From: an uncultured Verrucomicrobiae bacterium
GTDB taxonomy: Bacteria; Verrucomicrobiota; Verrucomicrobiia; Opitutales; JABDGR01
NCBI GenBank assembly: GCA_963765205.1
Contig: CAVXVB010000008.1
Span: 65,076 to 129,075, forward strand
Direction: 5' to 3'
DNA length: 64,000 nucleotides
In this document: positions 4,256 to 62,753 of the stretch, piece after piece
Numbering within the stretch: position 1 is the stretch's first letter
Layout: the number at the start of each line of letters is the position of its first letter
The notes under the pieces: model-generated
What the model was told of the DNA's origin: nothing
The model's input: the letters and a program-made list of their open reading frames with translations, nothing else
Databases searched by the model: none
Translations under genes and position numbers: made by a program

Positions 4256-4356
4256 TCAAAAGTGTGGGGCCGAAAAAGGCGCAATTTCATTGAATGCTCC
4301 GTTGGCGCAATTGGCGCGTTTCTTCCGTCCCGGGAAGCGCGACCGTCCCGGTCGCT

Positions 4357-4469
4357 GCGGTCGGCGTCCCGCCGACCGCCTCTTGGCAAATGCCAGCAAT
4401 GCGTCTCGCGCAGCCGATTCTCGAAGATGTCCTCGGCGAGACGCCGAGGACGGCGGGCGGGACGCCCGC
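4357..4469. repeat. cluster of three GC-rich perfect hairpins (REP/BIME-like)
   Basis: gcggtcggc/gccgaccgc at 4357-4379; gtcctcggcg/cgccgaggac at 4429-4451; gcgggcg/cgcccgc at 4453-4469. All lie in the lutB upstream intergenic region. Confidence 0.6.
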
Positions 4470-4733
4470 GCTCCCCGGGACAAAACCGCCGCATCCAAAA
4501 GCCCCAAAACAATTCTGAGTTGGTATAAGCTCCTTCAGAGCGCAAAATTATTTATACCCACAGATTCCCAGGGTTGCTCCGGCTGCAGCCCGAACAACCC
4601 TAGGGTGGCCTGCCCCCTTCGATCGGCCTCGTGCAACTGGCCTACAACCTGCCCGAAGCCCTGAACACCGTCGGCCTCAAGATCAAAGCCGCCGTGCATC
4701 CGCGGAAAGCGACGCGAAAGGATGGTTCTAGGC

Positions 4734-5586
4734 AGGTAATAAGGTGCAGCCTGACCCTCTATTGGCCCTCATGCCATGTTGTAGTTTGGTAAAAATTTCT
4801 TGTTAAACTCGATAGCAACCGAAGGCTTCCAATGATACTGCCCTTTCATATAATTTGAAAGGCCAGCGGCGTCCATGCAATCGAAACCGCCGATAGCCTG
4901 AGCGTCAAAATCACCCGGAGCTGCAATCACGATCAGCTCCCAGGAAATTCGGTCGCAAAATATTCCCCACTTGAGTGACGATCCCCAAAAAGCTCCAATA
5001 TCTACGCCAGCTAAAAACATTGGGCCATTTCGTACGCAATACATTGTAGACACGTATCTGTCAGTCAAATCCGCTGGCTTAAAAGAAGCTAGGCCGAAAA
5101 AGGAATTTCGCGGATAGTATCCATCGACTGGGTGCGGCTCTATCGTGATGTAATTGACCAACTCGTCGCCGAAATAACTGGCCGCTTTAAAGAGAAACGA
5201 CCCAAATTCCTTTTTGTAGATATAATGGTATCCAATAACAAAATATTTGGCGAAGGAACGTTTAAAAACAAAATCTGGCAGACGCTTTTGCATATCGATA
5301 ATTCCCGCACATTCTCGACTAAGAATGGAAAACGTGTCTCTTTCAACAACTATTTCGTTGGTGTTCATTATTATTTTCCTGTGCCAAAGTTTATCTTAAG
5401 TGGGAGTGCATCTGGGTCGGCTGGCATATAATCCGCTGCATTACCACCGGGGGCCGGAAAGGTCTCAGGCTGCACCTTATTACCCGAGTTTTTGGTGGAA
5501 GGATTGGATTGGAGGTTAGTGGCGCGAAGACGGCGGGCCGGAAAGGGGTCAGGGCCCGAAAGGGGTCAGGCTGCACCTTATTACCT
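4734..5586. mobile_element. AT-rich single-gene cassette bracketed by a perfect 24-bp inverted repeat (MITE-like; no transposase)
   Basis: aggtaataaggtgcagcctgaccc at 4734-4757 is the exact reverse complement of 5563-5586. An extra right-end copy sits at 5464-5483. A roughly 49-bp unit is directly repeated at 5464-5512 and 5566-5614. Confidence 0.35.
4769..5368 (-). CDS. hypothetical protein (AT-rich orphan, no recognisable domain)
   Basis: 199-aa ORF in markedly AT-richer DNA than its flanks. It sits between the inverted repeats. Confidence 0.6.
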   Translation of the reverse strand: MNTNEIVVERDTFSILSRECAGIIDMQKRLPDFVFKRSFAKYFVIGYHYIYKKEFGSFLFKAASYFGDELVNYITIEPHPVDGYYPRNSFFGLASFKPADLTDRYVSTMYCVRNGPMFLAGVDIGAFWGSSLKWGIFCDRISWELIVIAAPGDFDAQAIGGFDCMDAAGLSNYMKGQYHWKPSVAIEFNKKFLPNYNMA

Positions 5587-5633
5587 GAGTTTTTCATGTA
5601 GGATTGGATTGGGCTTGCTGGCGCAAAGAGTCA

Positions 5634-8045: not shown

Positions 8046-8091
8046 TTGCAAGCAGTCATAAAAGGTTAAAGGACTAATTTACCCCTGACTC

Positions 8092-8766
8092 ATGGCCGCG
8101 CCATTGCCCAACCGTTCTCTTGTCGAATCGTTGATTCGCCAGTCGCTCTTTGCGCAACTGGGGCGCGAGTCGTCCGTGGCCGCGCCGCCGACGCTCGTGG
8201 TCAACAGTTCCGCGCGCCACATGCACCTGACGCAGGAGAATGTGGAAATACTTTTTGGCAAGGGCACGCAATTGACCGTTCACAAGTGGCTTTATCAGGA
8301 GGGGCAGTTTGCCTCGGGGCAGACCGTCACGCTCGTCGGCCCGCGCGACCGCATCATCCCGAACCTGCGCATTCTCGGCCCCTGCCGCAACCTCACGCAA
8401 ATCGAACTAGCTTACACGGACTCGATTTACCTCGGCATCAACGTTCCGGTGCGCGCTTCGGGCGACATCAAAGGCTCGGCGGCGGGCGTGGTGATCGGGC
8501 CGAAAGGCGTCGTCGAAATGAAGGAAGGCATCATCCGCGCGGCGCGGCACGTCCACATGAGTCCGGCGGATGCGGCTTATTACGGCGTGAAGGCCGGCGA
8601 GCACATGACCCTGCGCGTCGAATCGCAAAAATGCTCGACGCGCTTTGACGACCTGCTGGTGCGCGTGGACCCGTCCTTCAAGCTCGAGGTGCATATTGAC
8701 ACGGACGAGGCGAATTGCTGCGACCTGGCCCGCGCGCAGCGCTGCGAGCTGGTGCGCCAGGGCTGA
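8092..8766 (+). CDS. pduL: phosphate acyltransferase PduL
   Basis: Two PduL repeats with His motifs (SARHMHLT, AARHVHMS). N-terminal amphipathic helix SLVESLIRQSLFAQL looks like an encapsulation peptide. Confidence 0.85.
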   Translation: MAAPLPNRSLVESLIRQSLFAQLGRESSVAAPPTLVVNSSARHMHLTQENVEILFGKGTQLTVHKWLYQEGQFASGQTVTLVGPRDRIIPNLRILGPCRNLTQIELAYTDSIYLGINVPVRASGDIKGSAAGVVIGPKGVVEMKEGIIRAARHVHMSPADAAYYGVKAGEHMTLRVESQKCSTRFDDLLVRVDPSFKLEVHIDTDEANCCDLARAQRCELVRQG

Positions 8767-8830
8767 ACATTTTTTGACCGAATTAACAAAATTAATAAAA
8801 TCAACCAAAACATCCTAAACACCTAATTAT

Positions 8831-9103
8831 ATGAATGACGCCATCGGACTGATTGAAACCAAAGGTTATGTCGGCCTCGTCGAGGCCAGCGACGCCATGG
8901 TGAAGGCGGCCAACGTCTCTCTGGTAAAACATATCCAGATTGGCGGGGCCTTCGTCACCACCATCGTGAAAGGCGACGTTGGCAGCGTGAACGCGGCGGT
9001 GACCGCCGGCAAGGAGGCCGCGCAGCGCGTCGGCAACCTGGTGGCCGCGCACACCATCGCCCGCCCCGCGGCCGGCCTGCTCGACTTCTTCATCGGCGCC
9101 TAA
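8831..9103 (+). CDS. BMC-H shell protein (Pfam00936-type hexamer)
   Basis: [29 protein letters not shown]... is a canonical PduA/EutM-like sequence. Confidence 0.9.
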
Positions 9104-9158
9104 ACGCCACCTAAAAACTAAAAAAACAGAAACCAGAAAACTTCAACCCATTACTACC

Positions 9159-9458
9159 ATGTCAGGACAAGCCATCGGAATGTTGGAAACCAAAGGCCTC
9201 ACCGCCCAATTCGAAGCGACCGACGCGATGCTCAAAGCCGCGACGGTCGAATTGCTCGGCTGGGAAAAAGTCGGCTCCGGCAATGTCGCCGTCTTCGTGC
9301 GCGGCGATGTCGCCGCGGTGAAGGCCGCCGTCGAAGCCGGCGCGACCGCCGCGGCCGCGATTGGCGAAGTCGTCGCCGTCAACGTCATCCCGCGCCCGCA
9401 CGACGATTTGCACCTGCTCGGCAAATTCCTGTCGAAGGCCGCCGCGCCCGCCAAGTAA
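9159..9458 (+). CDS. BMC-H shell protein
   Basis: [34 protein letters not shown]... Confidence 0.9.
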
Positions 9459-9526
9459 GGGTCGAGACGGCTTTCCGAGCCGTCCGCGGACGCTGGCAAA
9501 CCGGCAACCTCATTCACCAACCCTCC

Positions 9527-10720
9527 ATGGGCAAAATTCTCGTGGCCAACATCGGCAGCACCTCGTTCAAGTTCCGCTTGTTCGAGATGCCCGGCGAGCA
9601 ACTGCTTGCCAAGGGCGGCGTCGAGCGCATTGGCGCCGCCGACAGCCCGTGGCGTGTCGAGATCACGGGGCGCGCGCCGGCAGCGGGGACGGCGAAGTTT
9701 GCCAATTGCGACGAGGCCATCGCCCATGTGGAAAACGCGTTGCGCGGCACCGTGCTCGCGGGTTTCCATGAATTGGCGGCGGTCGGCTTTAAACCCGTGA
9801 TGGCCAAGGGCGTCAGCGGCACGCAGGTGATGGATGAAAAAGTACTGGGCGCGATGGAGGCGCTTTACACGCTGCTGCCCGCGCACAATCCGCCCTACGT
9901 CAACGCGGTACGCACGTTCAACCGGCTCTACCCGAAGCTGCCGTGCATCGGCACGTTCGAGACCGCGTTCTACGACCACCTGCCGGTCGAGAACACGCGC
10001 TTCCCGGTGCCGCTCGAATGGGAGCAAAAATTGGGCATCCGGCGCACGGGCTTTCACGGCGCGAGCCATCGGTTTGTGACCGAGCGTTTCGCGCAAATCA
10101 AAGGGCGCGCGGACTTGCGCCTCATCTCGTGCCACCTCGGCGGCAGTTCCTCGATCTGCGCCGTGCGCGCGGGAAAAGCGATTGATTCAAGCTGGGGGAT
10201 GACGCCGCAAAGCGGCCTGCCGCAGAGCAACCGCGTCGGCGATTTCGACGTGTTCGCGGCGTTCTACCTCGCGAAAGACCTGGGTCTCGGCCTTGAGCAG
10301 GTTGAAAAACAGTTGTCCACCAACGCCGGGCTCAAAGGCATGTCGGGCCTGGCCACCGGCGACGTGCGCGATGTCGCGGAAGCCGCCGCTGCCGGCAACG
10401 AAAACGCGCGCACCGCCCTCGCCGTTTTTAGCAATGCCATTCGCGGTTATCTCGGGCGCTTTCTCGTCGCGCTCAATGGCGCGGATGCCCTCATCTTCAC
10501 CGCCGGCATCGGCGAAAACCGGGTTGAGCTACGCGCAACCGTCTGCGCCGACCTTGATTTCTGCGGGCTGAAACTCGATGCCCAGGCCAACGCCACTACG
10601 CACGCCACCGAGGCGAAAATCTCCGCGCCCGACTCCAAAATCGAAGTCTGGGTGATTCCGACTAATGAAGAAATTGTGATCGCACGCAACGCGTGGGCGA
10701 AGCTGCAAGGAAGGAATTAA
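9527..10720 (+). CDS. ackA: acetate/propionate (acyl) kinase
   Basis: 397 aa. ASKHA-fold AckA signature regions (ILVANIGSTSFKF, RRTGFHGASH, IPTNEEIVIAR). Confidence 0.9.
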   Translation: MGKILVANIGSTSFKFRLFEMPGEQLLAKGGVERIGAADSPWRVEITGRAPAAGTAKFANCDEAIAHVENALRGTVLAGFHELAAVGFKPVMAKGVSGTQVMDEKVLGAMEALYTLLPAHNPPYVNAVRTFNRLYPKLPCIGTFETAFYDHLPVENTRFPVPLEWEQKLGIRRTGFHGASHRFVTERFAQIKGRADLRLISCHLGGSSSICAVRAGKAIDSSWGMTPQSGLPQSNRVGDFDVFAAFYLAKDLGLGLEQVEKQLSTNAGLKGMSGLATGDVRDVAEAAAAGNENARTALAVFSNAIRGYLGRFLVALNGADALIFTAGIGENRVELRATVCADLDFCGLKLDAQANATTHATEAKISAPDSKIEVWVIPTNEEIVIARNAWAKLQGRN

Positions 10721-10922
10721 GGTTTATGATTTAAGAAGTAAAAAGTAAAAATTACGAGTTACGAAACAAAATTCCAAAAAACGAACCCCGTCATTCTTTT
10801 CTGAAATTTCAAAGCCGAAACCGAAATCTGAACCTGAACCTAGAAACTCGAAACTAAAAATCCGAAACACCAAAGCAACAACTTTTAACCTGCAACTTGC
10901 AACCTTCAACCTATATAAAACT

Positions 10923-11213
10923 ATGTCCCAACAAGCCATTGGATTGATTGAAACCCGCGGTCTGGTCGCGCTCGTCGAGGCGACGGACGCCATGCTCAAG
11001 TCGGCCAACGTCGAGTTGGTCGGCCCGCTGACCCAGGTCGGCAACGCGATGGTCACCGTCGTGGTGACCGGCGATGTCGCCGCGGTCAAGGCCGCGACGG
11101 AAGCCGGGCGCACCGCCGCGCAATCGCTCGGCGAAGTCGTGTCCGTCAGCGTCATCGCCCGCCCGCATGGCGACCTCACCACCGTCCTGCCCAAGCTGCC
11201 GGTGAAGAAATAA
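10923..11213 (+). CDS. BMC-H shell protein
   Basis: [34 protein letters not shown]... Confidence 0.9.
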   Translation: MSQQAIGLIETRGLVALVEATDAMLKSANVELVGPLTQVGNAMVTVVVTGDVAAVKAATEAGRTAAQSLGEVVSVSVIARPHGDLTTVLPKLPVKK

Positions 11214-11324
11214 TCCGGCGCGGGTGCCTATTCAGGGCGTCCGCCTGGACGGCTGCTTGCGTCGTCGTCGCGGCGCTCGCCGTTTCACCGGCGGCGCCCT
11301 CCTCAACTCCAACTCCTCTCTGCC

Positions 11325-11636: not shown

Positions 11637-11643
11637 CCAAATA

Positions 11644-11725
11644 AATGGAAGATGGAAAAATCAAGCCAGACAAAAACTAAAATCCACGGACAATCGTAGA
11701 AAGTTTTTTCCATTTTCCATCTTCC
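11644..11725. repeat. stutter-word inverted repeat (atggaagatggaaaa / ttttccattttccatcttcc)
   Basis: Left arm at 11644-11660, right arm at 11705-11725, between the BMC-P and aldehyde dehydrogenase genes. Confidence 0.6.
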
Positions 11726-11752
11726 TTTTTCCATTCCCAACTCCCTCTTCCC

Positions 11753-13177
11753 ATGGACCAGCAGCAAATCATCTCTCGCGTCGTGGCCGAGGTGCTCGCG
11801 CGCCTGCAGACGCAGCAGTCCGCCGCGCGCAGCGGGCAGACCGGCTTCGGCGTTTACGACAAGATGGAGGACGCCATTGCCGCCGCGCAAAAATCATTCG
11901 TGCAATTGCGCGAGGAGGGCGTGACGGCGCGCAAGAAGGCCATCGCGGCGATCCGGCGCACCTGCGTGCAGAACGCGAAAGCGTGGGGCGAAATCGAATT
12001 CGCTGAGACGAAAATCGGCCGCCTCGAACACAAAATCGAAAAGCTCAAAATCTGTTCGGAGCTGGTGCCGGGCGTCGAGATGCTGGAACGCATGGCCTTC
12101 AGCGGCGATTTCGGGCTGACGATCATTGACTTCGCGCCCTGGGGCGTCATCGGCGCGGTCACGCCGGCCACGCACAGCGTGCCGACGCTCACGGGCAACG
12201 CCATAAACATGCTGGCGGCGGGCAACAGCGTGGTTTACAACACGCATCCCTCGGCCTGCGGCGTCGCGGCACTGGCCATCCGCGCCTACAACGAGGCGAT
12301 TTTTGCGGAGACCGGCATTCCCGACCTGCTGGCCACGGTCGTCAAGCCCACACTCCAGACCTTTGACGTGATGTGCAAGCATCCCGATGTGAAATTGCTT
12401 TGCGTCACCGGCGGCCCGGCGGTCGTCGCGGCGGCGATGAAGGCCGGCAAGCGTGCGGTTTGTGCCGGCCCGGGCAATCCGCCGGTGGTGGTGGACGAAA
12501 CGGCGTGCCTCGAACGCGCGGCGCGCTGCATCATCCAGGGCGCGGCCTACGACAACAATTTGCTCTGCATCGGCGAGAAACAGGTATTTGTCGTCGAGTC
12601 GGTCGCCGACGGCCTCATCACCGCGCTCAAAAACGCGGGCGCGGTGCAACTTTCGCCGGCCCAGATTGAGGCGCTGACGAAGCAGGCGTTCACGATTGAG
12701 CCGGGGCAGGGCGGGGGCTGCGCGCACGCGCACGTCACCAAATCCTTCATTGGGCGCGACGCCGCGGTGCTGGCGAAGGCGATCGGCCTCGACGTGCCGC
12801 CGGCCACGATGCTCCTGTTTGGCGAAACCAAGGAAGACCACCTCTTTGTGCAGGAGGAGCAGATGATGCCCTTCATCCCGATAGTGCGCGTGAAGAATGT
12901 GGACGAGGCCATCGCCGCGGCCATCCGCAGCGAGCACAACTACAAGCACACGGCCATCATGCACAGCCGCAACATCACGAACCTCACCAAGTTCGCCCAA
13001 CTCGCCGACACCACGCTTTTCATCAAAAACGGCCCGTGCATGACCGGCCTCGGCCTCGGCGGCGAGGGCTTCCTCTCCTTCTCCGTCGCCACCCCGACGG
13101 GCGAAGGCGTGACGACGCCGATGACGTTCACGCGGTCGCGGCGGTGCGTGATGGTGGAGAACCTAAATCTTTATTAA
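11753..13177 (+). CDS. CoA-acylating aldehyde dehydrogenase (PduP/EutE-like) with N-terminal encapsulation helix
   Basis: 474 aa. ALDH fold with a catalytic Cys context (NNLLCIGEK). N-terminal QQQIISRVVAEVLARLQ amphipathic helix. Confidence 0.85.
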   Translation: MDQQQIISRVVAEVLARLQTQQSAARSGQTGFGVYDKMEDAIAAAQKSFVQLREEGVTARKKAIAAIRRTCVQNAKAWGEIEFAETKIGRLEHKIEKLKICSELVPGVEMLERMAFSGDFGLTIIDFAPWGVIGAVTPATHSVPTLTGNAINMLAAGNSVVYNTHPSACGVAALAIRAYNEAIFAETGIPDLLATVVKPTLQTFDVMCKHPDVKLLCVTGGPAVVAAAMKAGKRAVCAGPGNPPVVVDETACLERAARCIIQGAAYDNNLLCIGEKQVFVVESVADGLITALKNAGAVQLSPAQIEALTKQAFTIEPGQGGGCAHAHVTKSFIGRDAAVLAKAIGLDVPPATMLLFGETKEDHLFVQEEQMMPFIPIVRVKNVDEAIAAAIRSEHNYKHTAIMHSRNITNLTKFAQLADTTLFIKNGPCMTGLGLGGEGFLSFSVATPTGEGVTTPMTFTRSRRCVMVENLNLY

Positions 13178-13262
13178 TGGAAAATAGAAAAATAAAACCC
13201 AAAACCGAATTTATTTTCCACCAACTTCCGCCATTTTTTCCAGCTTCCATTTTCCATCTTTT
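13176..13262. repeat. stutter-word inverted repeat (aatggaaaatagaaaaa / ttccattttccatc)
   Basis: Same word family as 11644-11725. Located between the aldehyde dehydrogenase and the second BMC-P. Confidence 0.5.
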
Positions 13263-17749: not shown

Positions 17750-17813
17750 GCTGACTTTCCGCCGGGAATCTGTCTCAAAATTGAAAAACGAAATGATTTC
17801 GCACGAATGCCGC

Positions 17814-17883
17814 GGGCGCAGCAAGCCTGCGCCCCTACAAGAGAACCGACGCGACCCTGGAGGGGCGCAGTCTCGCTGCGCCC
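17814..17883. repeat. REP-like palindrome pair (gggcgcagcaagNctgcgcccc family)
   Basis: Hairpin at 17814-17835 and an inverted copy at 17862-17883. Other copies are at 19041-19062 and 28306-28375, with a degenerate copy near 31041-31075. Confidence 0.7.
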
Positions 17884-17918
17884 GCTTCGAAAGGAGTTTG
17901 CGCGGAATTTTTTCTTTG

Positions 17919-18028
17919 CCGCCTCAGTGCCTCAGTGTCTCAGTGCCTTAGTCCCTCAGTCGCCTCAGTCGCTTTAGTCGCCTCAGTGCCTTTGTCCCTC
18001 AGTCCCTTTGCCCCTTCGCCCTCTCCTC
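17919..18028. repeat. degenerate tandem 8-9-mer array (cctcagtgc)n forming the lutA leader
   Basis: About 11 consecutive variants of cctcagtgc / cctcagtcg / ccttagtcc end 2 nt before the lutA start. Confidence 0.7.
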
Positions 18029-18029
18029 A

Positions 18030-18800
18030 ATGAGCACCCCCTCCCCCACCCGCCCGACCGGCCACCGCGTGCAAATGCTCGCCACCTGCCTGTGCGACGC
18101 GTTTTTCGACGACGCCGCGCGCGCGACCGTCGAGGTGCTCGAACACCTCGGCTGCGCCATTGATTTTCCCGAGACGCAAACCTGCTGCGGGCAGCCGGCG
18201 TTCAACGCGGGCGACTGGCCGGCCTCGCGGCGCGTCGTGCGGCACACCGTAAAAGTTTTTGCCGGCGACGCGCCGGTCGTCGTGCCCAGCGCGTCCTGCG
18301 CGGCCATGCTCATCCACGGCGCGCCCCTCGAATTTGAAAAAGAAGCCGACCACGGCAACGTCGAAAAACTCGGCGGGCGCACCTGGGAACTCGCGGACTT
18401 CATTGTCAACGGCCTCGGCGTGAAAACGTGGCCCGGAAAATACCCGGCGAAAATCGCGTTCCACACCTCCTGCCACTCGCGCGGCACGAAAAGCGGCGAG
18501 GCGACGATCAGTTTGCTGCGCTCCATCGCGGGCGTGGAAGTCGTCGTTTTTGGCGAAGGCGAGCAATGCTGCGGTTTCGGGGGCACGTTCTCGGTCGCCT
18601 TCCCGAATATTTCGACCGGCATGGGCAACCTAAAACTCGAACACGTCCGCGCGGCCAATCCCGACGTGCTCGTCTCCGGCGACTCGAGCTGCCTGATGCA
18701 CCTCGCCGGCCTGGCGGAAAAAGAAGGCCACCCCCTCCGCACCCTCCACTTCGCGCAAATTTTAAGAGACGCGCTGAAGAACGGCGGGGTGCTCGGGTAG
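18030..18800 (+). CDS. lutA: lactate utilization protein A (CCG-domain Fe-S oxidoreductase)
   Basis: Two CCG motifs (TCCGQPAFN, QCCGFGG). LutA/YkgE-like. An alternative start is the Met at 18075. Confidence 0.85.
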   Translation: MSTPSPTRPTGHRVQMLATCLCDAFFDDAARATVEVLEHLGCAIDFPETQTCCGQPAFNAGDWPASRRVVRHTVKVFAGDAPVVVPSASCAAMLIHGAPLEFEKEADHGNVEKLGGRTWELADFIVNGLGVKTWPGKYPAKIAFHTSCHSRGTKSGEATISLLRSIAGVEVVVFGEGEQCCGFGGTFSVAFPNISTGMGNLKLEHVRAANPDVLVSGDSSCLMHLAGLAEKEGHPLRTLHFAQILRDALKNGGVLG

Positions 18801-19026: not shown

Positions 19027-19244
19027 GCCTATTGAGGTTAGGGGCGCAGTCTTGCTGCGCCCTCAATGGAGCTATGGCCTAAAACGGTTATTCACGCCTT
19101 ATGCGCAGGTTATTCACCGGCTTGTGCGCAGGGTTGGCGCCTGGTTTGTGAAGAAAATTTGTTTCATTTGGGCAAAAAAACGTTGCGGGCGCGCGCGGCG
19201 CGCTCTGTAGTGCGCGGTTTAACGCCCACCATTCACCCGCGCGC

Positions 19245-22200: not shown

Positions 22201-23042
22201 ACGAAGACGCCGACCTCGCGCCGAAGCCCAAGCGCCCGCGCGGCGAGCCGACCGACGAGGATTTCGCCGCCATGGACCAAACGGACTGGGAACCGCTGGC
22301 GCGCGAGATCAAGGATTTGCGCGAGCGCATCGTTAGCATCGGCGCGGTGAACCTCGTCGCCATCGAGGAATACTCCGCGCTGCGCGAGCGCCACGACTTC
22401 TTGAAAACGCAGAGCGACGACCTCTGGAAATCCAAGGAAGACCTCGTCAAGGCCATTGACGAAATCAACCAGACCTCGCTGCAACTGTTCAAGGACACCT
22501 TCGAGCAAATCCGCAAAAATTTCCGCTTCACCTTCGAGAAACTGTTCGGCGGCGGCGAGGCCGACCTGGAATTGGTCGAGGCGGCGGACGTGCTCGACAG
22601 CGGCGTGGAAATCGTCGCCCGCCCGCCCGGTACAAAGCTGCGCAGCATCTCGCTGCTCTCCGGCGGCCAAAAGACGATGACCGCGCTCGCGCTGCTCTTC
22701 GCCATTTACATGGTCAAGCCCAGCCCCTTCTGCGTGCTCGACGAGTTGGACGCCCCGCTCGACGACGCGAACATCGGGCGCTTCACGGCGATGCTGCGCG
22801 ACTTCACCCGCTATTCGCAGTTCCTCGTCGTCACCCACAACAAGCGCACCATCGCGACGGCGCAGACGATTTACGGCGTGACTATGCAAGAACGCGGCGT
22901 CACGCGCCTCATCTCGATGCGCCTCGACACGGAAACCGGCGAAGCGGTGGCCCACGGCGCCGGCCCCGCCACCCAAACCGCCACCACGCCCCCCACCCCG
23001 GCGGAGGAATCTGCGCCCGTAGTAACTCCGACGCCGGCGTGA
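19245..23042 (+). CDS. smc: chromosome segregation protein SMC
   Basis: Walker A GPNGCGKSN, long coiled coils, signature LSGGQK, Walker B FCVLDELDAPLD. Confidence 0.95.
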   Translation: MFLREVQINGFKSFADRTRIAMQPGVTAIVGPNGCGKSNIVDAIRWVLGEQSAKALRGGKMEDVIFAGTDTRKALPVCEVSLTFTDCEKELGTAFHEVEIGRRVGRDGVGEYSINGKQCRLKDIHRLFMDTGVGRVSYSFMVQGQIDQILSSNPAERRSIFEEAAGITRYKSQRREALGKLALVEQNLARATDVIEEVARQIGSLKRQAGKALRYQRLKHRLTKLDLAHNAHFFTQRQAAIARLESLATAAQAAAADTASTLREREERVAELKADRAELTRKLQDAQQAVFDLRSEMESAQSQAEFSFVRKEDLGGRLGEIESEISGLRAQLAELDERMSADSAHQQGALGSMGTSDSTFRTRQADHEAAQTALEAGERALQDRRQHLLVLESGITRLRTNSTHLEVDLKTYQIKHAALADAVFQLTQEQAGLDQQQAQLAAARAARAGEHATAQQAATEAQAAETALRLQFRDTQARIQDLDRQLARGAAQLAAMEGLQARFEGFSEGAKAILQGKLEDVLPKGTFSILTKLVEIDDADAPAIEALLGPAADALALADFAAAGPVASRLAAGQLGRACLQVPAPSRAKISAPADLPAGIRPVLGAVALREGNAAWQPRLENLLGDCYLADSLENFLAFWAAHPDFEFGLAATARGEVVDRRGLIFGGVSDGGKKENSFLQRESDIRRLRKELKTKNEALTQHTETSMRLQAELDAAEALIAEKRARVGELAQEVATVETQVKTLAQALAQNADNAGRQRRQLEELEQTRAEAEQRHARAQADLAGAEAQISGEREAITAGEEKLTGLRAARDRCQEALAEARLELAEKRQRVQILDRNLGELQAQRRDLDTRLLRRAQEIDAAREQIAELEKSAADQKARAAQLQQTLATATESLETDRQAVLRREHEINELEAGLAGERDRRREREAELHAHEVKLAEERSQSAFLEEKVRTEHQLDIRQIDWKRELWSADEQFATRVKLDDLDEDADLAPKPKRPRGEPTDEDFAAMDQTDWEPLAREIKDLRERIVSIGAVNLVAIEEYSALRERHDFLKTQSDDLWKSKEDLVKAIDEINQTSLQLFKDTFEQIRKNFRFTFEKLFGGGEADLELVEAADVLDSGVEIVARPPGTKLRSISLLSGGQKTMTALALLFAIYMVKPSPFCVLDELDAPLDDANIGRFTAMLRDFTRYSQFLVVTHNKRTIATAQTIYGVTMQERGVTRLISMRLDTETGEAVAHGAGPATQTATTPPTPAEESAPVVTPTPA

Positions 23043-23043
23043 A

Positions 23044-23170
23044 AATTCACCGCCAAGGCGCAAAGGGCGCAAAGAATAAATTCTGTTAATTCTGTTCACC
23101 CAAGCACGAAGTGCCGGGAGTGATTCTGTCAAAATCTTCCTTGACGTTCTTTGCGTCTTTGCGGTGAATT
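23044..23170. repeat. stutter-word inverted repeat (ttcaccgc-caaggcgcaaagggcgcaaag family)
   Basis: Left arm at 23044-23076, right arm at 23147-23170, with outer ends aattcaccgc / gcggtgaatt. Located between the convergent smc and DUF480 genes. Confidence 0.7.
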
Positions 23171-23192
23171 GTCTTGGTCTCTAACACGCCTT

Positions 23193-25245: not shown

Positions 25246-25317
25246 GATTCACTGCCCAGACGCCAAGCGCGCCAAGAAATTATTTGTCTTCGCGCCCTTT
25301 GCGCCTTTGCGGTGAAC
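25246..25317. repeat. stutter-word inverted repeat (same ttcaccgc/aaaggcgc family)
   Basis: gattcactgcccagacgccaagcgcgccaagaa / tcttcgcgccctttgcgcctttgcggtgaac, between lysC and thrC. Confidence 0.6.
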
Positions 25318-28232: not shown

Positions 28233-28305
28233 GGGATACGCAGGATTTAAGATGCCTCTGTCGCAGGCAAGAATAAACCGGGGTGGGCGTCGTGTTTATA
28301 CAGGC

Positions 28306-28375
28306 GGGCGCAGCAAGACTGCGCCCCTACAAAACCACGCTGTTTTTGCTGTAGGGGCGCAGACTTGCTGCGCCC
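28306..28375. repeat. REP-like palindrome pair (gggcgcagcaagactgcgcccc...)
   Basis: Two inverted copies of the hairpin unit separated by ctacaaaaccacgctgtttttgctgta. Confidence 0.7.
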
Positions 28376-28552
28376 GTTTTGCCGCCGATGAAAACCCACA
28401 CTGCCTGGGTGCACACGCGTCTAAATGCTCCCTTAATTCCCCCTCCTTTTCACGCAATCGCCGCACAAATGGCGCATGCCGCCCGTATTGTATCGCCCGG
28501 CCCCACTCCCGGGGCTGCCACTGATTAACCCACCCAACCCCCCCCGTTATCC

Positions 28553-35705: not shown

Positions 35706-35719
35706 TTTTTTTCAAGGAA

Positions 35720-35975
35720 GGGACAAAAGGACAGAGGCACTGAGGGTAAGAAAAAAACCCTCGCAACTTTCCCTGCTTCGAACCTGAACGCCTCAACGCT
35801 TTTGCCCATGTGGTCTCGGTCTTGCTTCCGCCGCCTTTGTCCCTCAGTCCCTCTGTCCCTGTCTCGCTTCCGCGCCTATGCCCTCAGTGCCTCAATGCCT
35901 CAGTGCCTTTGTCCCTGTTTCGCCTTCGCGCCTTTGTTCCTCTGTGCCTCTGTCCCTTTGCTCCTCTGCCCCACT
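35720..35975. repeat. cctcagtgc/ctctgtccc stutter-word tract with an inverted purine-strand arm
   Basis: ggacaaaaggacagaggcactgaggg at 35720-35745 opposes multiple ccctcagtgcctc / ctctgtccct words at 35834-35975. Confidence 0.6.
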
Positions 35976-48667: not shown

Positions 48668-48681
48668 TATTATGAATTTTT

Positions 48682-48775
48682 AACCACGGAGAACACTGAG
48701 CACACGGAGAAGCTTGCCATTAAAAGACTGAAATTTTAAACGTTTCCTCCGTGTTCTCCGTGCCCTTCCGTGGTT
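48682..48775. repeat. stutter-word inverted repeat (aaccacggagaacac family)
   Basis: Left arm at 48682-48712, right arm at 48746-48775, with ends aaccacgg / ccgtggtt. Confidence 0.7.
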
Positions 48776-48793
48776 CAATAAAAAACAATTTTT

Positions 48794-52469: not shown

Positions 52470-52480
52470 ACCATTATCGA

Positions 52481-52614
52481 ATTCCTGAATGCTGAGTTCT
52501 ACATGCTGAATGCTGAGTTCCGAATGCTGAACGGCGTCGCCAACTGTGGTGTCGAATTATCACCGAGAATCGGTATCCTCCCATTCAGCAATCAGAATTC
52601 AGCATTCAGAAATT
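52481..52614. repeat. stutter-word inverted repeat (gaatgctgaatgctgag family)
   Basis: Left words at 52481-52532, right arm cattcagcaatcagaattcagcattcagaaatt at 52582-52614, in a divergent intergenic region. Confidence 0.65.
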
Positions 52615-52620
52615 AGCCCC

Positions 52621-53173: not shown

Positions 53174-53271
53174 TTAACCACAGAGAACACGGAGGACACG
53201 GAGAAGGATGCTGCTGCATTTCATGTTTCTGATTAAATTCCCTCCGTGTGCCCTGTGTTCTCCGTGGTTAA
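53174..53271. repeat. stutter-word inverted repeat (aaccacagagaacacggag family)
   Basis: Left arm at 53174-53207, right arm at 53240-53271, with ends ttaaccac / gtggttaa. Confidence 0.7.
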
Positions 53272-53381
53272 AACACCGGCTGCCGCTCCTGACCTGCGAC
53301 CGCAAAATCCACCAACTCACCGGGGTGCCGGGTTTGCACCCGATTTGGTAAATGGCCGTTGGGGGCCGCGTGGCGGGCGAC

Positions 53382-53813
53382 CTATTCGCCGTGGGACAAG
53401 CTGCCGCCATCACTATAGTTGGCCGGTGGGTTCATTTTTTCCTTAAATTGTTGCTTGTATTTCCGTCTTTCGCCGCGGGAAAATAGTATAAAAACATACA
53501 TGCTGAAAAAGGCACACCCCAACCAAAGGTGAAAGTCGTGCAAAAACCTGTATGATTCAGTTTGCGCGAAGTGATCTTGCGCGAGGCCAAACAACGCCCA
53601 TAGCAAAATCAATAAGCAACAAAGCCGATTGGCAATTACGTACCACGGTGGTTCAATTTTCCCATAAACTTTTAATATTCGATTAACGATTTTTGACCAT
53701 GGCGGTTCGTTCTTGCCGTAACGAACAAGGAGCGCACACAGAGATACCGGCACTGCAACGATGAAGCAGCCATGGACAAAAACATGGAAGTAATATAGTG
53801 CGGTCTGCACCAT
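53382..53813 (-). CDS. hypothetical membrane protein (AT-rich)
   Basis: 143 aa with 3-4 TM segments. Internal repeat YGKNEPPWSKIVNRIL / YGKIEPPWYVIANRL. Confidence 0.55.
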   Translation of the reverse strand: MVQTALYYFHVFVHGCFIVAVPVSLCALLVRYGKNEPPWSKIVNRILKVYGKIEPPWYVIANRLCCLLILLWALFGLAQDHFAQTESYRFLHDFHLWLGCAFFSMYVFILFSRGERRKYKQQFKEKMNPPANYSDGGSLSHGE

Positions 53814-56036: not shown

Positions 56037-56124
56037 GGGGTGCTGGGATTGTGCGCCGCGAACGCATGGAGATCAAACTGAATCTCGGGCACAAAAATAG
56101 GTGGTGTTTGAAGAATCTTCCCAT

Positions 56125-56197
56125 CGTAGCGCGGTGCTTCAGCCCGCGCTCTGCATGATTCGTTGGAAAGAAGCGCGGGCTGAAGCACCGCGCTACG
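56125..56197. repeat. perfect 26-bp palindrome (cgtagcgcggtgcttcagcccgcgct family)
   Basis: Arms at 56125-56150 and 56172-56197 with a 21-nt loop. A degenerate copy is at 63893-63956. Confidence 0.75.
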
Positions 56198-56312
56198 AAG
56201 CCGGCAAACAGAGCCAGTGCCCTCAAACCGATCACTGCCCGGCCGTCGAGCATTCGCCATTGTCGCCAACTCGAAACTCGCAACCCGAAACTCGAAACTC
56301 CATGCTTAACTC

Positions 56313-57110
56313 ATGCCCTTGGAACTGGCTTACCGTTACTTCGGCGGCGAGGGCCGGCCGCCGCTCGTCATCCTGCACGGCTTGCTGGGTTCGTCGCGCA
56401 ATTGGACGACAGCGGGCAAGCTGCTCGCGCGCAGCTTCGAGGTCTTCGCGCTCGATTTGCGCGGCCACGGCGAGTCGCCCTTCGCCCCGCCGCCGGTGCG
56501 CGATTACTCGTTCAAGACCTGCGCGGCGGACGTGGCGGCGTGGCTCGACGCGCGCGGCGTGCGGCGGCCGCTGCTGCTGGGGCACAGCCTCGGCGGCAAA
56601 ATCGCCATGCGCCTGGCGGTGGATGAGCCTGCGCGCCTCTCCGCGCTGGTGGTGGCGGACATCGCTCCGCGCGATTACGCCCCGCCGCACGCAGCGGCCT
56701 TCGCGGCCATGCAGGAGCTCGATCTGGCCGCGCTCCATTCCCGCGCCGAGGCCGAGGAAAAATTGCGCGCGCAACTGCACGATGAAACGCTGGCGCGCTT
56801 TCTAGTAACAAATCTCGCGCGCGAGGCCGACGCCGCTTTCCGCTGGCGCGTGGATGTCGCGGGGCTGGCGGCGGCGTTGCCGGCCATTGCGCGTTCACCG
56901 CTCGCACCCGGCGAAACCTATCCAGGGCCAGCTCTATTTCTGCGCGGCGACCAATCCGACTTCATCCGCGACGCCGACCGGCCGGCCATCGCCGCCCATT
57001 TTCCGCGGCATCAAATCCTCGCCCTCGGCCGCGCCGGGCACAACCTGCATGTGGATCAGCCGGCGGCCTTCACCGTCGCGCTCGAGTATTTTGCGACGGA
57101 TCTGGTGTAG
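56313..57110 (+). CDS. alpha/beta hydrolase (YbfF/MenH-like esterase)
   Basis: LVILHGLLGSSRNW... with nucleophile elbow GHSLGG. Confidence 0.75.
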   Translation: MPLELAYRYFGGEGRPPLVILHGLLGSSRNWTTAGKLLARSFEVFALDLRGHGESPFAPPPVRDYSFKTCAADVAAWLDARGVRRPLLLGHSLGGKIAMRLAVDEPARLSALVVADIAPRDYAPPHAAAFAAMQELDLAALHSRAEAEEKLRAQLHDETLARFLVTNLAREADAAFRWRVDVAGLAAALPAIARSPLAPGETYPGPALFLRGDQSDFIRDADRPAIAAHFPRHQILALGRAGHNLHVDQPAAFTVALEYFATDLV

Positions 57111-57121
57111 GGGCTTTCATT

Positions 57122-57206
57122 ATTCACCGCAAAGGCGCGGAGAACGCAAAGGAGTTTTTTTAGACAGAATTTATTCTTGGCGCCCTTTGCGCCTTGGCGG
57201 TGAATT
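57122..57206. repeat. stutter-word inverted repeat (ttcaccgcaaaggcgc family)
   Basis: Left arm at 57122-57154, right arm at 57176-57206, with ends attcaccgc / gcggtgaat. Confidence 0.7.
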
Positions 57207-57217
57207 GCCTTGGGAAG

Positions 57218-57403
57218 TTACCGCAGAGCGATGAGCGCGAAGCCGACGATGGCGGCGGACAGGAAGAGCGTGCCGACCCAGGCGGCGACTTCGCTCTTGT
57301 CGAAGCGGGAGGTGGTGTCCTCGACCGTGATGCGCTCGGCGATGGCGCGCTTCTGCACGGGCGAGAGGGAATTCCAGATTTGGGCGTCAATTTTGGTGTT
57401 CAT
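57218..57403 (-). CDS. small tail-anchored membrane protein, hypothetical
   Basis: aggag RBS 8 nt upstream. 61 aa with a C-terminal TM segment (VAAWVGTLFLSAAIVGFALIAL). Confidence 0.55.
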   Translation of the reverse strand: MNTKIDAQIWNSLSPVQKRAIAERITVEDTTSRFDKSEVAAWVGTLFLSAAIVGFALIALR

Positions 57404-61314: not shown

Positions 61315-61432
61315 AAGAATTTCTGAATGCTGAATGCTGAGCGCAGAAATCTGTTGTCCTATGCCCCAATTCTATTTTGCACCAACGAACGAAGGGGGTT
61401 TCAGCATTCAGAATTCAGCATTCAGAAATTCT
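61315..61432. repeat. stutter-word inverted repeat (gaatgctgaatgctgag family)
   Basis: aagaatttctgaatgctgaatgctgag at 61315-61341 opposes tcagcattcagaattcagcattcagaaattctt at 61400-61432, between convergent genes. Confidence 0.7.
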
Positions 61433-62753
61433 TACCCGAGGTTTCCAGACGCTCCGCGTGCAGCCACGCCTTCGGCACCGCGTGCTTCGCCAGCCGCCTG
61501 TGCAACGCTTCACGCAGCTTTTTTTCCGGCTGCTTTTTGCCGGTGTAAATAGCCACGACGCGTTCGCCCCATTCGGCATCGGGCAGCCCGAGGACGCGCA
61601 CGTCCTTGACCAGGCCGGTCGCGCGGATTTGTTTTTCGACGGCGGCAGGATGGACTTTTTCGCCGCCGGTGTTGATGGCTTGGTCGAGCCGCCCAAGCAG
61701 GCGCAAGCGGCCGCGCGCATCAAGCTTGCCGCCATCTTCCGCGCCGAACGGCCCCGGCTGCCGCCGCGCGGGGAAATATCCCGCGAAGAGCGACGAGGCC
61801 TGAATCCAGACGCGGCCATTATTGCCAACGGGCCGTGGCCGGGCGGTTTCATCGCCAATCCAAATTTTCGCATGGGTCAGCGGTGTGAACCGTGGTGGCG
61901 CGCCGGCGAGGAAGTCCGCGGGCCGCTGCATGGCGACGGCGGCGGCGGTCTCGGTCATTCCATACGCGAGTGCCACGGGCAGACGCAGCTCGCGGGCGCG
62001 GTCGAGCAGGCCGGGGAGTGGTGCCGCGCCGCCGAGCAGAATGGCGCGCGTGTGGCGTAGCCAGGCGATGACCCTTTTGCGTTCGAGCAGGCGCTGCAAT
62101 TGAGTCGGCACCAGCGAGACGAGGGCGCGCTCCGGCGGCGTGGCCGGCGGTCGGCCGGCGGTGAGGTTCTTCCAGTCTTCGAGCCACAGCACGCCGCCGG
62201 CTTCGAGCGCGCGCACGGCGGGCAGCAGGCCACTGACATGCCACAGCGGCAGCGTGCTGACGTGTGTGCTACCGTCCGCATCCAGAAAAGCCGCCAGCGC
62301 GCGCGCCGCCGCCGCAAGGGTCGCCCAGGTGTGAACCGCCCAGCGCACGCGGCCACCGGTGCCACCGGTGGAAATTAGGATCGTCCCCGCCCACATTTTC
62401 GCATCGAAGTCGAAGGCCGGTTTCACGCGCGGCCAGCGCGCGGTTTTGTCGCCGAGCCAGAGGCCGGGCTGGATTTGCGCGGCAGCCTGGGCGCGTTCGG
62501 CTGCGCCCCAGCGCGGGCTGGCGAGAACCACCGGCAGATTTTTTTCGGACGCCGCCAATACACCGGCTAGAAATTTCGCGGGGTTCTCCCAGGCCACCAC
62601 CACCGGACCGCGCGCTGAATTTTTTCCGAGGCGCGCGGTGGCCGCCGCAAAAGCCCCGGCAAAACCTTCCGCACCCGGCCCGGCCAGCCAGGCCCCATGC
62701 TCGGCCAAGCGGGACTTGCGCAGCGGGTGGATCAAGGAGCGAGCCGGTTCCAT
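61422..62753 (-). CDS. menE: o-succinylbenzoate-CoA ligase-like AMP-dependent synthetase
   Basis: From the Met at 62751-62753. STGGTGGRVRW (degenerate AMP motif), YGMTET, GRLDQAINTGGEKVHP. Adjacent to menC. Confidence 0.7.
   Translation of the reverse strand: MEPARSLIHPLRKSRLAEHGAWLAGPGAEGFAGAFAAATARLGKNSARGPVVVAWENPAKFLAGVLAASEKNLPVVLASPRWGAAERAQAAAQIQPGLWLGDKTARWPRVKPAFDFDAKMWAGTILISTGGTGGRVRWAVHTWATLAAAARALAAFLDADGSTHVSTLPLWHVSGLLPAVRALEAGGVLWLEDWKNLTAGRPPATPPERALVSLVPTQLQRLLERKRVIAWLRHTRAILLGGAAPLPGLLDRARELRLPVALAYGMTETAAAVAMQRPADFLAGAPPRFTPLTHAKIWIGDETARPRPVGNNGRVWIQASSLFAGYFPARRQPGPFGAEDGGKLDARGRLRLLGRLDQAINTGGEKVHPAAVEKQIRATGLVKDVRVLGLPDAEWGERVVAIYTGKKQPEKKLREALHRRLAKHAVPKAWLHAERLETSGKNF

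Follow-up and report, generated by a model that had tools for sequence, protein, structure and literature searches.

The DNA considered here is a stretch of 64,000 nucleotides (hereafter the window; G+C content 61%) from an uncultured Verrucomicrobiae bacterium of the Opitutales, taken from contig CAVXVB010000008.1 (positions 65,076 to 129,075) of the assembly GCA_963765205.1. The product of its thrC gene is 84% identical to a protein of an Opitutales metagenome-assembled genome (MAG) and about 60% identical to those of other Opitutaceae. At ten places, the intergenic spacers hold an inverted repeat whose arms consist of tandemly repeated, "stuttered" words, and at an eleventh place such words form an array by themselves (Table 1). 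A first-pass annotation of the sequence had assigned all eleven sites to one inverted-repeat design. Ten of them conform to this design, and the remaining one, 17919-18028, has no purine-rich partner arm and is not a hairpin. The window contains no rRNA, and every site either has protein-coding genes on both sides or follows a tRNA gene. The sites had also been described as often lying between convergent genes, which applies to four of the eleven; six are between co-directional genes, and one, 52481-52614, is in a divergent region, as had been stated. Of the co-directional sites, two fall within a microcompartment operon (EutN / aldehyde dehydrogenase / EutN) and another separates the genes for aspartate kinase and thrC. 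The aldehyde dehydrogenase gene of this operon occupies positions 11753-13177, and a protein 100% identical to its product (P0241) is found in NCBI/ENA.

Table 1. Stutter elements of the window: position, surroundings, arms and stability of the predicted RNA fold (z, relative to shuffled sequences). ORF, open reading frame.
Element	Position	Strand	Surroundings	Words and arms	Fold z
Family d hairpin	11643..11729		microcompartment operon, EutN / aldehyde dehydrogenase	ATGGAAG/ATGGAAA heptamers	-3.9, -4.6
Family d hairpin, weak	13176..13262		overlaps aldehyde dehydrogenase stop; next EutN follows		-1.7 (+), -3.2 (-)
One-armed pyrimidine-rich array	17919..18028	+	abuts ATG at 18030	CCTCAGTG-type words, period 8; periodicity p = 0.002	
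Family a hairpin	23041..23173		between convergent SMC-like (+) and DUF480-like (-) genes	5' arm 23041-23076, reading ..TTCACCGCCAAGGCGCAAAGGGCGCAAAG..; loop 60 nt; 3' arm 23137-23173	-6.7 and -7.2 (-54.8 kcal/mol on +, -52.5 on -)
Family a hairpin	25246..25317		fills aspartate kinase / thrC spacer; 1 nt after kinase stop, 8 nt before thrC ATG		-5.1 (+), -7.5 (-)
Family e element	35716..35965		after tRNA gene; partner arrays reach next gene	purine-rich arm 35716-35746; pyrimidine-rich partner arrays 35834-35871 and 35878-35965; periodicity p = 0.002-0.006	about -3
Family b hairpin	48677..48782		between aminotransferase stop and ispF start	TTAACCACGGAGAACACTGAGCACACGGAG..	-5.4, -6.1
Family c hairpin	52480..52616		divergent spacer; ends ~5 nt before NYN gene ATG	GAATGCT heptamers	-7.3, -7.4
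Family b hairpin	53174..53271		begins 4 nt past NYN/YacP-like gene stop		-8.2, -7.8
Family a hairpin	57122..57206		convergent: hydrolase 56313-57110 (+), small ORF 57218-57403 (-)		-6.6, -6.5
Family c hairpin	61315..61433		convergent; begins right at sigma-54 activator gene stop codon	3' arm forms the final codons, stop included, of the AMP-binding enzyme gene on the - strand	-6.6, -6.7

Hairpins were detected by a purpose-written gapped scan, with a score threshold of at least 14 for intergenic hairpins and 60 dinucleotide-preserving shuffles as controls. An earlier k-mer detector (stutter plus reverse complement) was dropped as noisy, because it gave 45 clusters versus about 31 in shuffles. 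The gapped scan picked up the two-armed sites again, and by its scores the window contained 12 intergenic hairpins of 14 or more, while the shuffles contained 0.12 on average and 2 at maximum. These 12 comprise nine of the stutter sites and three hairpins of the REPIN-like type, which are described below. Related loci totalling 2.37 Mb gave 277 hairpins with a score of at least 13, of which 128 were intergenic; this is an enrichment, since intergenic DNA makes up 10.7% of that sequence. RNA folding gave the same picture: nine of the ten two-armed elements were more stable than shuffles on both strands, with z values from -3 to -8, and the exception, 13176-13262, was weak on the + strand. The stutter hairpins are real and far beyond chance. 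A comparison with Rfam, using the gathering and E-value thresholds, assigned no family to any of the sites.

The arms of the two-armed sites are 17-37 nt long and about 80-90% complementary, and they enclose loops of 12-94 nt. The stems of 30-35 nt contain about 20% mismatches, transversions among them, and are best paired over their outer 9-21 bp. In about 85-90% of the stutter hairpins of the window and 2.4 Mb of related loci (18 of 21 in an automatic set), purines predominate in the 5' arm and pyrimidines in the 3' arm, a polarity that reads identically from either strand. Where an element follows a stop codon, it begins -1 to 14 nt from it, and the 3' arms end 5-25 nt upstream of the next ATG. 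No site has a U-tract, which the first-pass annotation had stated for most of them. The tandem 7-10-mers that it had seen in the arms were borne out statistically in part: periodicity was clear in 4 of the 8 arms of families b and c, in one arm of family d (d1R) and in all four arms or arrays of family e (p about 0.002-0.006). The remaining b and d arms were not individually significant (p 0.06-0.30), and the stutter of family a is weak, with only GGCGCAAAG occurring twice. The words of the five proposed families are present at all eleven coordinates, and they reduce to two classes by period, 8-9 nt in families a, b and e and 7 nt in families c and d. Each family has two to three copies in the 64 kb, which have arm words in common and unrelated loops. 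Moreover, arms pair across copies of a window family as well as, or better than, with their own partners; for example, the 5' arm at 23041 scores 30 with the 3' arm at 57122 and 18 with its own 3' arm. This is as expected for independent decay from a shared consensus, and not for copy-specific compensation. The elements also inflate ORF calls, as had been pointed out for the 5' end of thrC, where MSSRPLRLCGEPIT precedes MKFISTRG.

The comparison of orthologous intergenic regions, which the first-pass annotation had proposed, revealed gain, loss and replacement of the elements. At the aspartate kinase / thrC junction, the closest relative (L001; related loci and phage contig stretches are numbered with the prefix L) has a spacer of 8 nt and no element, and at the family b site 48682 a spacer of 18 nt without element is found in L083. 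The second family b site (53174) is unoccupied in L081-L085, in which the neighbouring gene is 88-92% identical at the protein level. The spacer there is 3-6 nt in L082, L083 and L085, and L081 has an intact cassette of ribbon-helix-helix (RHH) and PIN genes. L081, L082 and L085 also have the family c element of 52481 in the corresponding divergent spacer, with words that differ in number and order in both arms; a remnant is left in L083 and nothing in L084. Filled and empty sites could be compared at three junctions (aspartate kinase / thrC, aminotransferase / ispF and aldehyde dehydrogenase / EutN2), and no target-site duplication was evident by eye at any of these pairs, whose flanks are too diverged for certainty. 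As a separate observation at 53174, a PIN/VapC toxin gene that is intact, with its RHH antitoxin gene, in L081 (2342-3112) is reduced in the window to its C-terminal codons (53286-53352). The family b hairpin occupies the place of this lost module, and a low-GC ORF of 143 aa on the - strand (53382-53813) lies beside the remnant.

Replacement was seen in the microcompartment operon. The EutN / aldehyde dehydrogenase junction carries a stutter hairpin in the window genome, L229, L230 and L232 (4/4), and these hairpins consist of four unrelated word sets (ATGGAAG, TTACGAA, AATTAAA and TTATGAG) with unrelated loops. The aldehyde dehydrogenase genes of the four relatives are 85-94% identical in nucleotide sequence, and the sequences can still plainly be aligned over the neighbouring spacer. 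At the junction that follows, aldehyde dehydrogenase / EutN2, L230 has an empty spacer of 8 nt and the other three have different hairpins (ATGGAAA, TTATGAA and CTAGAAT). In the operon hairpins (window 13175-13200; L229 2491-2530; L232 11423-11458), the first heptamer opens with the stop codon of the upstream gene, and this stop codon (TAA, TGA or TAG) varies between the relatives in step with the word family. Tandem heptamers that contain a stop codon present stops in all three frames.

Gene-bearing counterparts of the hairpins were found when the aspartate kinase / thrC spacer was compared over 80 Opitutales loci. Many of the loci carry stutter hairpins of other words in this spacer, and in six of them the spacer is 377-600 nt long and has stutter arms around an ORF. 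Three of the six ORFs were scanned and encode a four-helix-bundle protein of TIGR02436 (E 1e-26 to 1e-30), with weaker similarity to Avd; the remaining ones are homologs of the scanned ORFs by tblastn. In L051, the same spacer holds a hairpin of 147 nt without ORF, whose loop encodes MMANPTSFFLKP, the C-terminus of the four-helix-bundle protein, and this hairpin is accordingly an internal-deletion derivative of such a cassette. A scan for long loops detected three more cassettes, with CACGGAG-type arms around GxxExxY genes (TIGR04256, E about 1e-39), one of which is frameshifted. The 2.37 Mb sample contains nine genes of these two families, and all of them are located between stutter inverted repeats. 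We take GxxExxY to be a PD-(D/E)XK nuclease-like protein and TIGR02436 to be the "23S rRNA intervening-sequence protein"; neither of these proteins, which are the ones encoded between matching arms, is a recognised transposase. A sequence search of PDB gave no solved relative of GxxExxY, and the four-helix-bundle protein matched 2RLD and 2GSC, both uncharacterised. Each of the two proteins has at least 8000 homologs, the closest being up to 65-75% identical, some across phyla.

Five additional GxxExxY genes were fetched, two from Ruficoccus and one each from a Pirellulaceae MAG, Oscillatoria and a Terriglobia MAG, which represent Verrucomicrobia, Planctomycetes, Cyanobacteria and Acidobacteria. 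All five are flanked by housekeeping genes and have the same orientation as the upstream gene, and four of them are tightly bounded by stutter arms that abut the ATG and the stop codon, as in tctctcacggaggcactgaggcacggag followed directly by ATG and TAA followed directly by actcttctccgtgtctctgtgtctccgtgagaga. The arm of the Oscillatoria cassette, ctcacggaggcgcaaaggcgcaaag, joins words of family b and family a, and on either side of the Pirellulaceae gene stand short, complete hairpins built from the same words. Seven further four-helix-bundle genes from other contigs (three distinct proteins) are all in the aspartate kinase / thrC spacer. Overall, 20 of the 21 GxxExxY and four-helix-bundle genes examined in relatives and other phyla are directly between such arms, the exception being the Pirellulaceae gene, a count in which the arms of three of these seven fetched four-helix-bundle genes were inspected. 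The word period is 7 in all nine four-helix-bundle arms (CAGA-type words) and 8-9 in all six GxxExxY arms, and the latter have words in common with window families a, b and e. Four of seven GxxExxY cassettes have GAGG or GGAGG in the 5' arm, 8-11 nt upstream of the ATG, and a fifth has AAGG at -14.

Arm pairing in the cassettes was specific to the copy. The orthologous four-helix-bundle cassettes gave an arm score of 19.9 with their own partner versus 13.7 with the partners of other cassettes (p < 2e-4), and the GxxExxY cassettes gave 20.6 versus 10.9 (p = 4e-4). The arm co-variation that the first-pass annotation had put forward as a test was therefore found from family to family and among orthologous cassettes (permutation p <= 4e-4), but not between copies within a window family. 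Small selfish modules in general use the aspartate kinase / thrC spacer as a landing site. In the Opitutus-like L037 and L038, this spacer has two small ORFs that resemble a toxin-antitoxin pair by eye, the pair in L038 being accompanied by a short stutter hairpin. Two other long inverted repeats, in L043 and L006, proved to be unrelated, being an Rrf2 regulator locus and coding sequence, respectively.

The words of the window also occur in phage DNA. Exact 18-19-mers of families b, a, c and e were found in 17, 11, 22 and 4 stretches of IMG/VR contigs (loci L161-L177 and L192-L228), with a G+C content of 45-68%. Most of them are one-armed arrays a short way before start codons, with several per genome. 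The family b arrays number two to five per 10 kb, mostly on the gene strand and mostly without a partner arm, and where checked they end about 8-10 nt before start codons (AACCACGGAGAACACGGAGAGCACGGAGGGGGAGAAATG). Families a and c are present both as one-armed arrays and as hairpins, and in one phage contig (L204, L207 and others) arrays of the heptamer GAATGCT alternate with arrays of CCCCTGA. By tblastn, no GxxExxY or four-helix-bundle gene was detected in any of the viral loci, and for the words of families a, c and e the viral contigs gave only gene-less arrays and hairpins and no ORF-bearing cassettes. An array of the 17919-18028 type precedes the same gene in L230 and L232, with different word mixes. 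As a side observation on direct arrays, the spacers of the PVM-type microcompartment operon at 8046-11324 are A/C-rich and G-poor, and the 202-nt spacer at 10721-10922 holds direct arrays of AAGTAAA, TTACGA, CCGAAA/CTGAAC and CAACYT without inverted partners; the arrays of the relatives differ there.

The closest known system is the intervening sequence (IVS) of 23S rRNA. The Coxiella 23S IVS has a terminal inverted-repeat stem of 28 bp and three tandem GACAGAT heptamers, variable in copy number among strains, just before the ATG of a four-helix-bundle (S23p) ORF; RNase III cuts the stem at the first repeat, and IVSs of the S23p type (Coxiella, Leptospira) are considered to be selfish elements of unknown origin (PMC4990558). 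The aspartate kinase / thrC cassettes of Opitutaceae have the same protein family, CAGA-type words of period 7 and a terminal stem. The window elements likewise have a terminal inverted-repeat stem and tandem short repeats in the 5' arm, weak in family a, but they differ from 23S IVSs in lying between genes and not in helix 25 or 45 of 23S rRNA, in having no ORF, and in that many have words of 8-10 nt and an association with GxxExxY. ORF-less IVSs exist in other bacteria.

Other known elements resemble the hairpins in part. Miniature inverted-repeat transposable elements also have inverted termini, dispersed copies, interchangeable arms and presence/absence polymorphism at orthologous sites, but no autonomous partner that encodes a transposase and has matching ends was found here. 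The Correia/NEMIS elements of Neisseria and ERIC of Yersinia are intergenic inverted-repeat elements that are co-transcribed and cleaved by RNase III as long hairpins, affecting mRNA processing. They have a fixed consensus that includes the interior, TA target duplications, no stutter and no cassette gene. The stutter elements are likewise intergenic inverted repeats beside transcribed genes, and differ in their stutter and variable interiors. Short tandem repeats beside start codons form another comparison, among which are the cyanobacterial STRR sequences. TAACTGA heptamers stand beside start codons in Beggiatoaceae, Cyanobacteria and Bacteroidetes as direct arrays (one inverted set among 170 in Beggiatoa), with horizontal transfer suspected and no mechanism known (PMC4679880), and heptamer repeats are similarly placed in Nostoc (bioRxiv 10.1101/2022.06.06.494920). 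These are intergenic tandem words that end near starts across distant phyla, and thus match the one-armed arrays of the window and the phages. However, they had not been tied to hairpins, GxxExxY or four-helix-bundle genes or IVSs, whereas 10 of the 11 window sites have an inverted partner array, and the words of 17919-18028 have a period of 8.

From these comparisons, we favour, at somewhat better than even chances, the reading that the two-armed elements belong, as non-autonomous forms without a gene, to a class of IVS-like, hairpin-bounded insertion cassettes that reside in transcribed spacers. The full-length members of this class would carry one small gene, GxxExxY or four-helix-bundle, flanked by stuttered inverted arms of this kind. 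The insert would be transcribed with the host operon, and its purine-rich 5' arm would pair with the pyrimidine-rich 3' arm to form a long imperfect duplex, which would loop the insert out and bring the upstream stop codon beside the downstream start codon. This duplex is probably a substrate of RNase III, to judge from the analogous Coxiella 23S IVS. In the full-length GxxExxY cassettes, the 5' arm may also serve as a Shine-Dalgarno (SD)-like leader through its GAGG/GGAGG. Replication slippage is the presumed source of the stutter, with both arms expanding and contracting together, and the GxxExxY nuclease, acting in trans, is a candidate for the movement of the elements to new sites. Among the functions offered by the first-pass annotation, the selfish element is the best supported, as the arms are common to copies without their loops, the arms are interchangeable, the orthologous spacers are variable, and the same words bound GxxExxY and four-helix-bundle genes elsewhere. 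That annotation did not contain the link to ORF cassettes and 23S IVSs, the purine-5'/pyrimidine-3' polarity or the REP-like class of nearby GC-rich hairpins.

A wider form of this reading is possible, and we put it forward tentatively. The 23S IVSs would then be the best-known corner of a large, cross-phylum group of transcript-resident cassettes that have a small gene (GxxExxY nuclease or four-helix-bundle protein) or none between stuttered inverted arms, insert at stop-codon junctions of any transcribed spacer, are looped out or excised from the RNA through arm pairing and RNase III, and spread between bacteria and phages; the nuclease would mobilise gene-less copies, and the arrays would be portable translation leaders that phages use alone.

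Several observations weigh against the cassette reading. No recognised transposase or target-site duplication was found, although no search was aimed at a REP-associated tyrosine transposase (RAYT). By tblastn, the window itself has no GxxExxY or four-helix-bundle gene, and no ORF-bearing counterpart with the exact words of family c or d was found. The loops are not conserved among the copies of a family, which is unusual for miniatures derived from transposons. That three elements were acquired independently in a single spacer of 8 nt among the four relatives is explained by selection for a hairpin at this place, or by a targeted mechanism, at least as well as by random insertion. The one-armed arrays, which keep their position before a start codon and recur before phage genes without a partner or a cassette gene, suggest that the words may have a function of their own in the host or phage. 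Cleavage by RNase III, probable as it is, is argued from another organism and another context. Finally, when the transition mismatches of the stems were oriented by the flanking genes, 15 were of the G·U type versus 29 of the A·C type, and at all five of the folded co-directional sites (25246, 48677, 11643, 13176 and 35716) the antisense strand folded better than the sense strand by 6-13 kcal/mol. Thus, without an excess of sense G·U and with weaker sense folds, no selection that preserves the pairing of the sense mRNA is visible. At the convergent sites both strands folded about equally. The combination of better antisense folds and A·C-type sense mismatches is the opposite of what either selection for mRNA hairpins or transcription-linked deamination predicts.

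The hairpins could instead be RNA structures useful to the host, such as U-tract-independent and often bidirectional terminators, 3'-end stabilisers or intercistronic attenuators, of which the structure is kept while the sequence drifts; we regard this as unlikely, though it is the main rival, in the form that some copies are kept for a role such as attenuation or stabilisation. Its strongest support is the EutN / aldehyde dehydrogenase hairpin, which is present in 4/4 relatives despite different words, as structural selection predicts, and attenuation would be sensible there because the gene for a low-abundance vertex protein lies downstream. In addition, the family c element persists at one spacer whose flanking genes show about 77-92% protein identity, the elements are positioned directly after stops, and 4 of the 8 convergent spacers of the window carry one. 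As in intrinsic terminators, the 5' side is purine/A-rich and the 3' side pyrimidine/T-rich whichever strand is read, and since canonical terminator-like sites occur in the window at chance level, another termination device is conceivable. On the other hand, close relatives manage with spacers of 8, 18 or 3-6 nt and no hairpin, and the occurrence of identical words in unrelated spacers, other phyla and phages points to dispersal rather than to local structural selection. The stems have no U-tracts, about 20% mismatches including transversions and no sense-strand tolerance of G·U, and the sense folds inside operons are weaker than the antisense folds. Intrinsic terminators have a GC-rich stem and a loop of 3-8 nt, while the hairpins here have loops of 12-94 nt and mismatched stems of 30-35 nt, and 6/11 sites are between co-directional genes. 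A consensus terminator scan of the window, whose overall counts equalled chance, flagged no stutter hairpin itself; its sole match inside one was a small sub-hairpin at 11700-11683 on the - strand, within 11643-11729. The intra-operon copies, the lack of U-tracts, the absence of a sense G·U signature and the empty orthologous spacers together indicate that the elements are not primarily terminators. Termination, which the first-pass annotation had listed among the candidate roles, is hence the least supported of them, although the hairpins may have side-effects on transcripts.

It seems improbable, but deserves consideration, that the arrays are binding or recognition sites in the mRNA leader, for the ribosome (through SD-like GGAG/AAGG), S1, a cold-shock protein or the four-helix-bundle protein, and that the inverted copy sequesters them. 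One-armed arrays end 0-10 nt before starts in the window, in the relatives and, repeatedly and on the gene strand, in the phage contigs; the SD-like GAGG/GGAGG and AAGG of five GxxExxY cassettes described above are placed accordingly, and the heptamer repeats beside start codons (PMC4679880; bioRxiv 10.1101/2022.06.06.494920) offer a precedent. Many word families, such as GAATGCT, TTATGAG and AATTAAA, have no SD-like motif, however, and periods and sequences of the words vary widely inside one genome. In the short elements the purine-rich arms face a loop and no gene, and no binding factor has been identified.

Still less probable, in our judgement, is an origin in place, in which slippage amplifies a local 7-10-mer and a fold-back template switch copies the array in inverted form, so that the words are made at each site. 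This would account for the variation of words from site to site and among relatives at one site, for the joint expansion and contraction of the arrays in both arms, and for the stop codon of the upstream gene at the head of the operon hairpins; the right-arm word TTTCCAT at 13176 moreover resembles TTTCCCT in the empty spacer of L230. It does not account for the same 18-20-mers at unlinked sites of the window and also outside it, both in other phyla and in phage contigs with a G+C content of 45-68%, for arms of different copies that pair mutually as well as with their own partners, or for the same words in ORF-bearing cassettes. Repetitive extragenic palindromic (REP) elements or REPINs moved by RAYT, or ordinary miniature transposons derived from insertion sequences, are very improbable: although the stutter hairpins are intergenic, multi-copy and polymorphic among relatives, and true REP-like hairpins are present in the window, the stutter arms are neither palindromic nor tagged with GTAG/CGTC, the ORFs between the arms do not encode transposases, the loops of different copies are unrelated, and no target-site duplication was seen. 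As for integron attC sites, only a chance partial match to the core site was found, at one family b copy, and this candidate was rejected by inspection, the cassettes being dispersed rather than arrayed beside an integrase.

REP and REPIN sequences, which are associated with RAYT, are short, abundant, extragenic and hairpin-forming, with several families per genome and often at the 3' ends of genes (PMC3116915, PMC3733652). The stutter hairpins are similarly extragenic, multi-family and polymorphic between relatives, but a REP unit is an imperfect GC-rich palindrome of 20-40 nt with a GTAG/CGTC tag, whereas the stutter arms are tandem words with neither self-complementarity nor tag. Hairpins of the REP/REPIN type form a separate class in the window, at 17812-17885, 28305-28376 and 56124-56198, with a single unit at about 19040-19075. 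They are GC-rich and near-perfect, and their arms are palindromic with a CTAC/GTAG tag (e.g., GCGGGCGCAGCAAGCCTGCGCCCCTACA and its inverted copy). Similar hairpins are present in L001, L024, L031, L040, L046 and L071.

Hairpins of the IVS, REP-like and miniature-transposon-like kinds are already known, and the link of intergenic hairpins to GxxExxY and four-helix-bundle cassettes and to rRNA IVSs is previously unreported; in the literature on GxxExxY, TIGR02436 and Verrucomicrobia hairpins, no description of such cassettes, or of gene-less forms outside rRNA, was found. The origin and movement of rRNA IVSs have been open questions since about 1990. If the same design fills the mRNA spacers of Verrucomicrobia by hundreds, and has gene-bearing kin in Planctomycetes, Cyanobacteria and Acidobacteria besides the gene-less arrays in phages, these questions would become accessible to comparative genomics and to experiments with culturable Opitutales. 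The cassettes also supply a context for two very large uncharacterised families, GxxExxY and four-helix-bundle, and connect the start-codon heptamer repeats of other phyla to a hairpin-cassette system. Since the elements inflate ORF calls and yield spurious low-complexity "hypothetical proteins", they should be masked in annotation pipelines.

Two further inverted repeats of the window are of other kinds. At 4733-5587, a perfect inverted repeat of 37 nt without stutter (CAGGTAATAAGGTGCAGCCTGACCC...) surrounds a low-GC ORF of 199 aa on the - strand (4769-5368) with no Pfam match, and this looks like a separate foreign cassette or a small mobile element. At 4327-4481, within a spacer of 513 nt, there is an imperfect GC-rich hairpin with arms of 49 nt and a loop of 57 nt, which belongs to neither the stutter nor the REP class.

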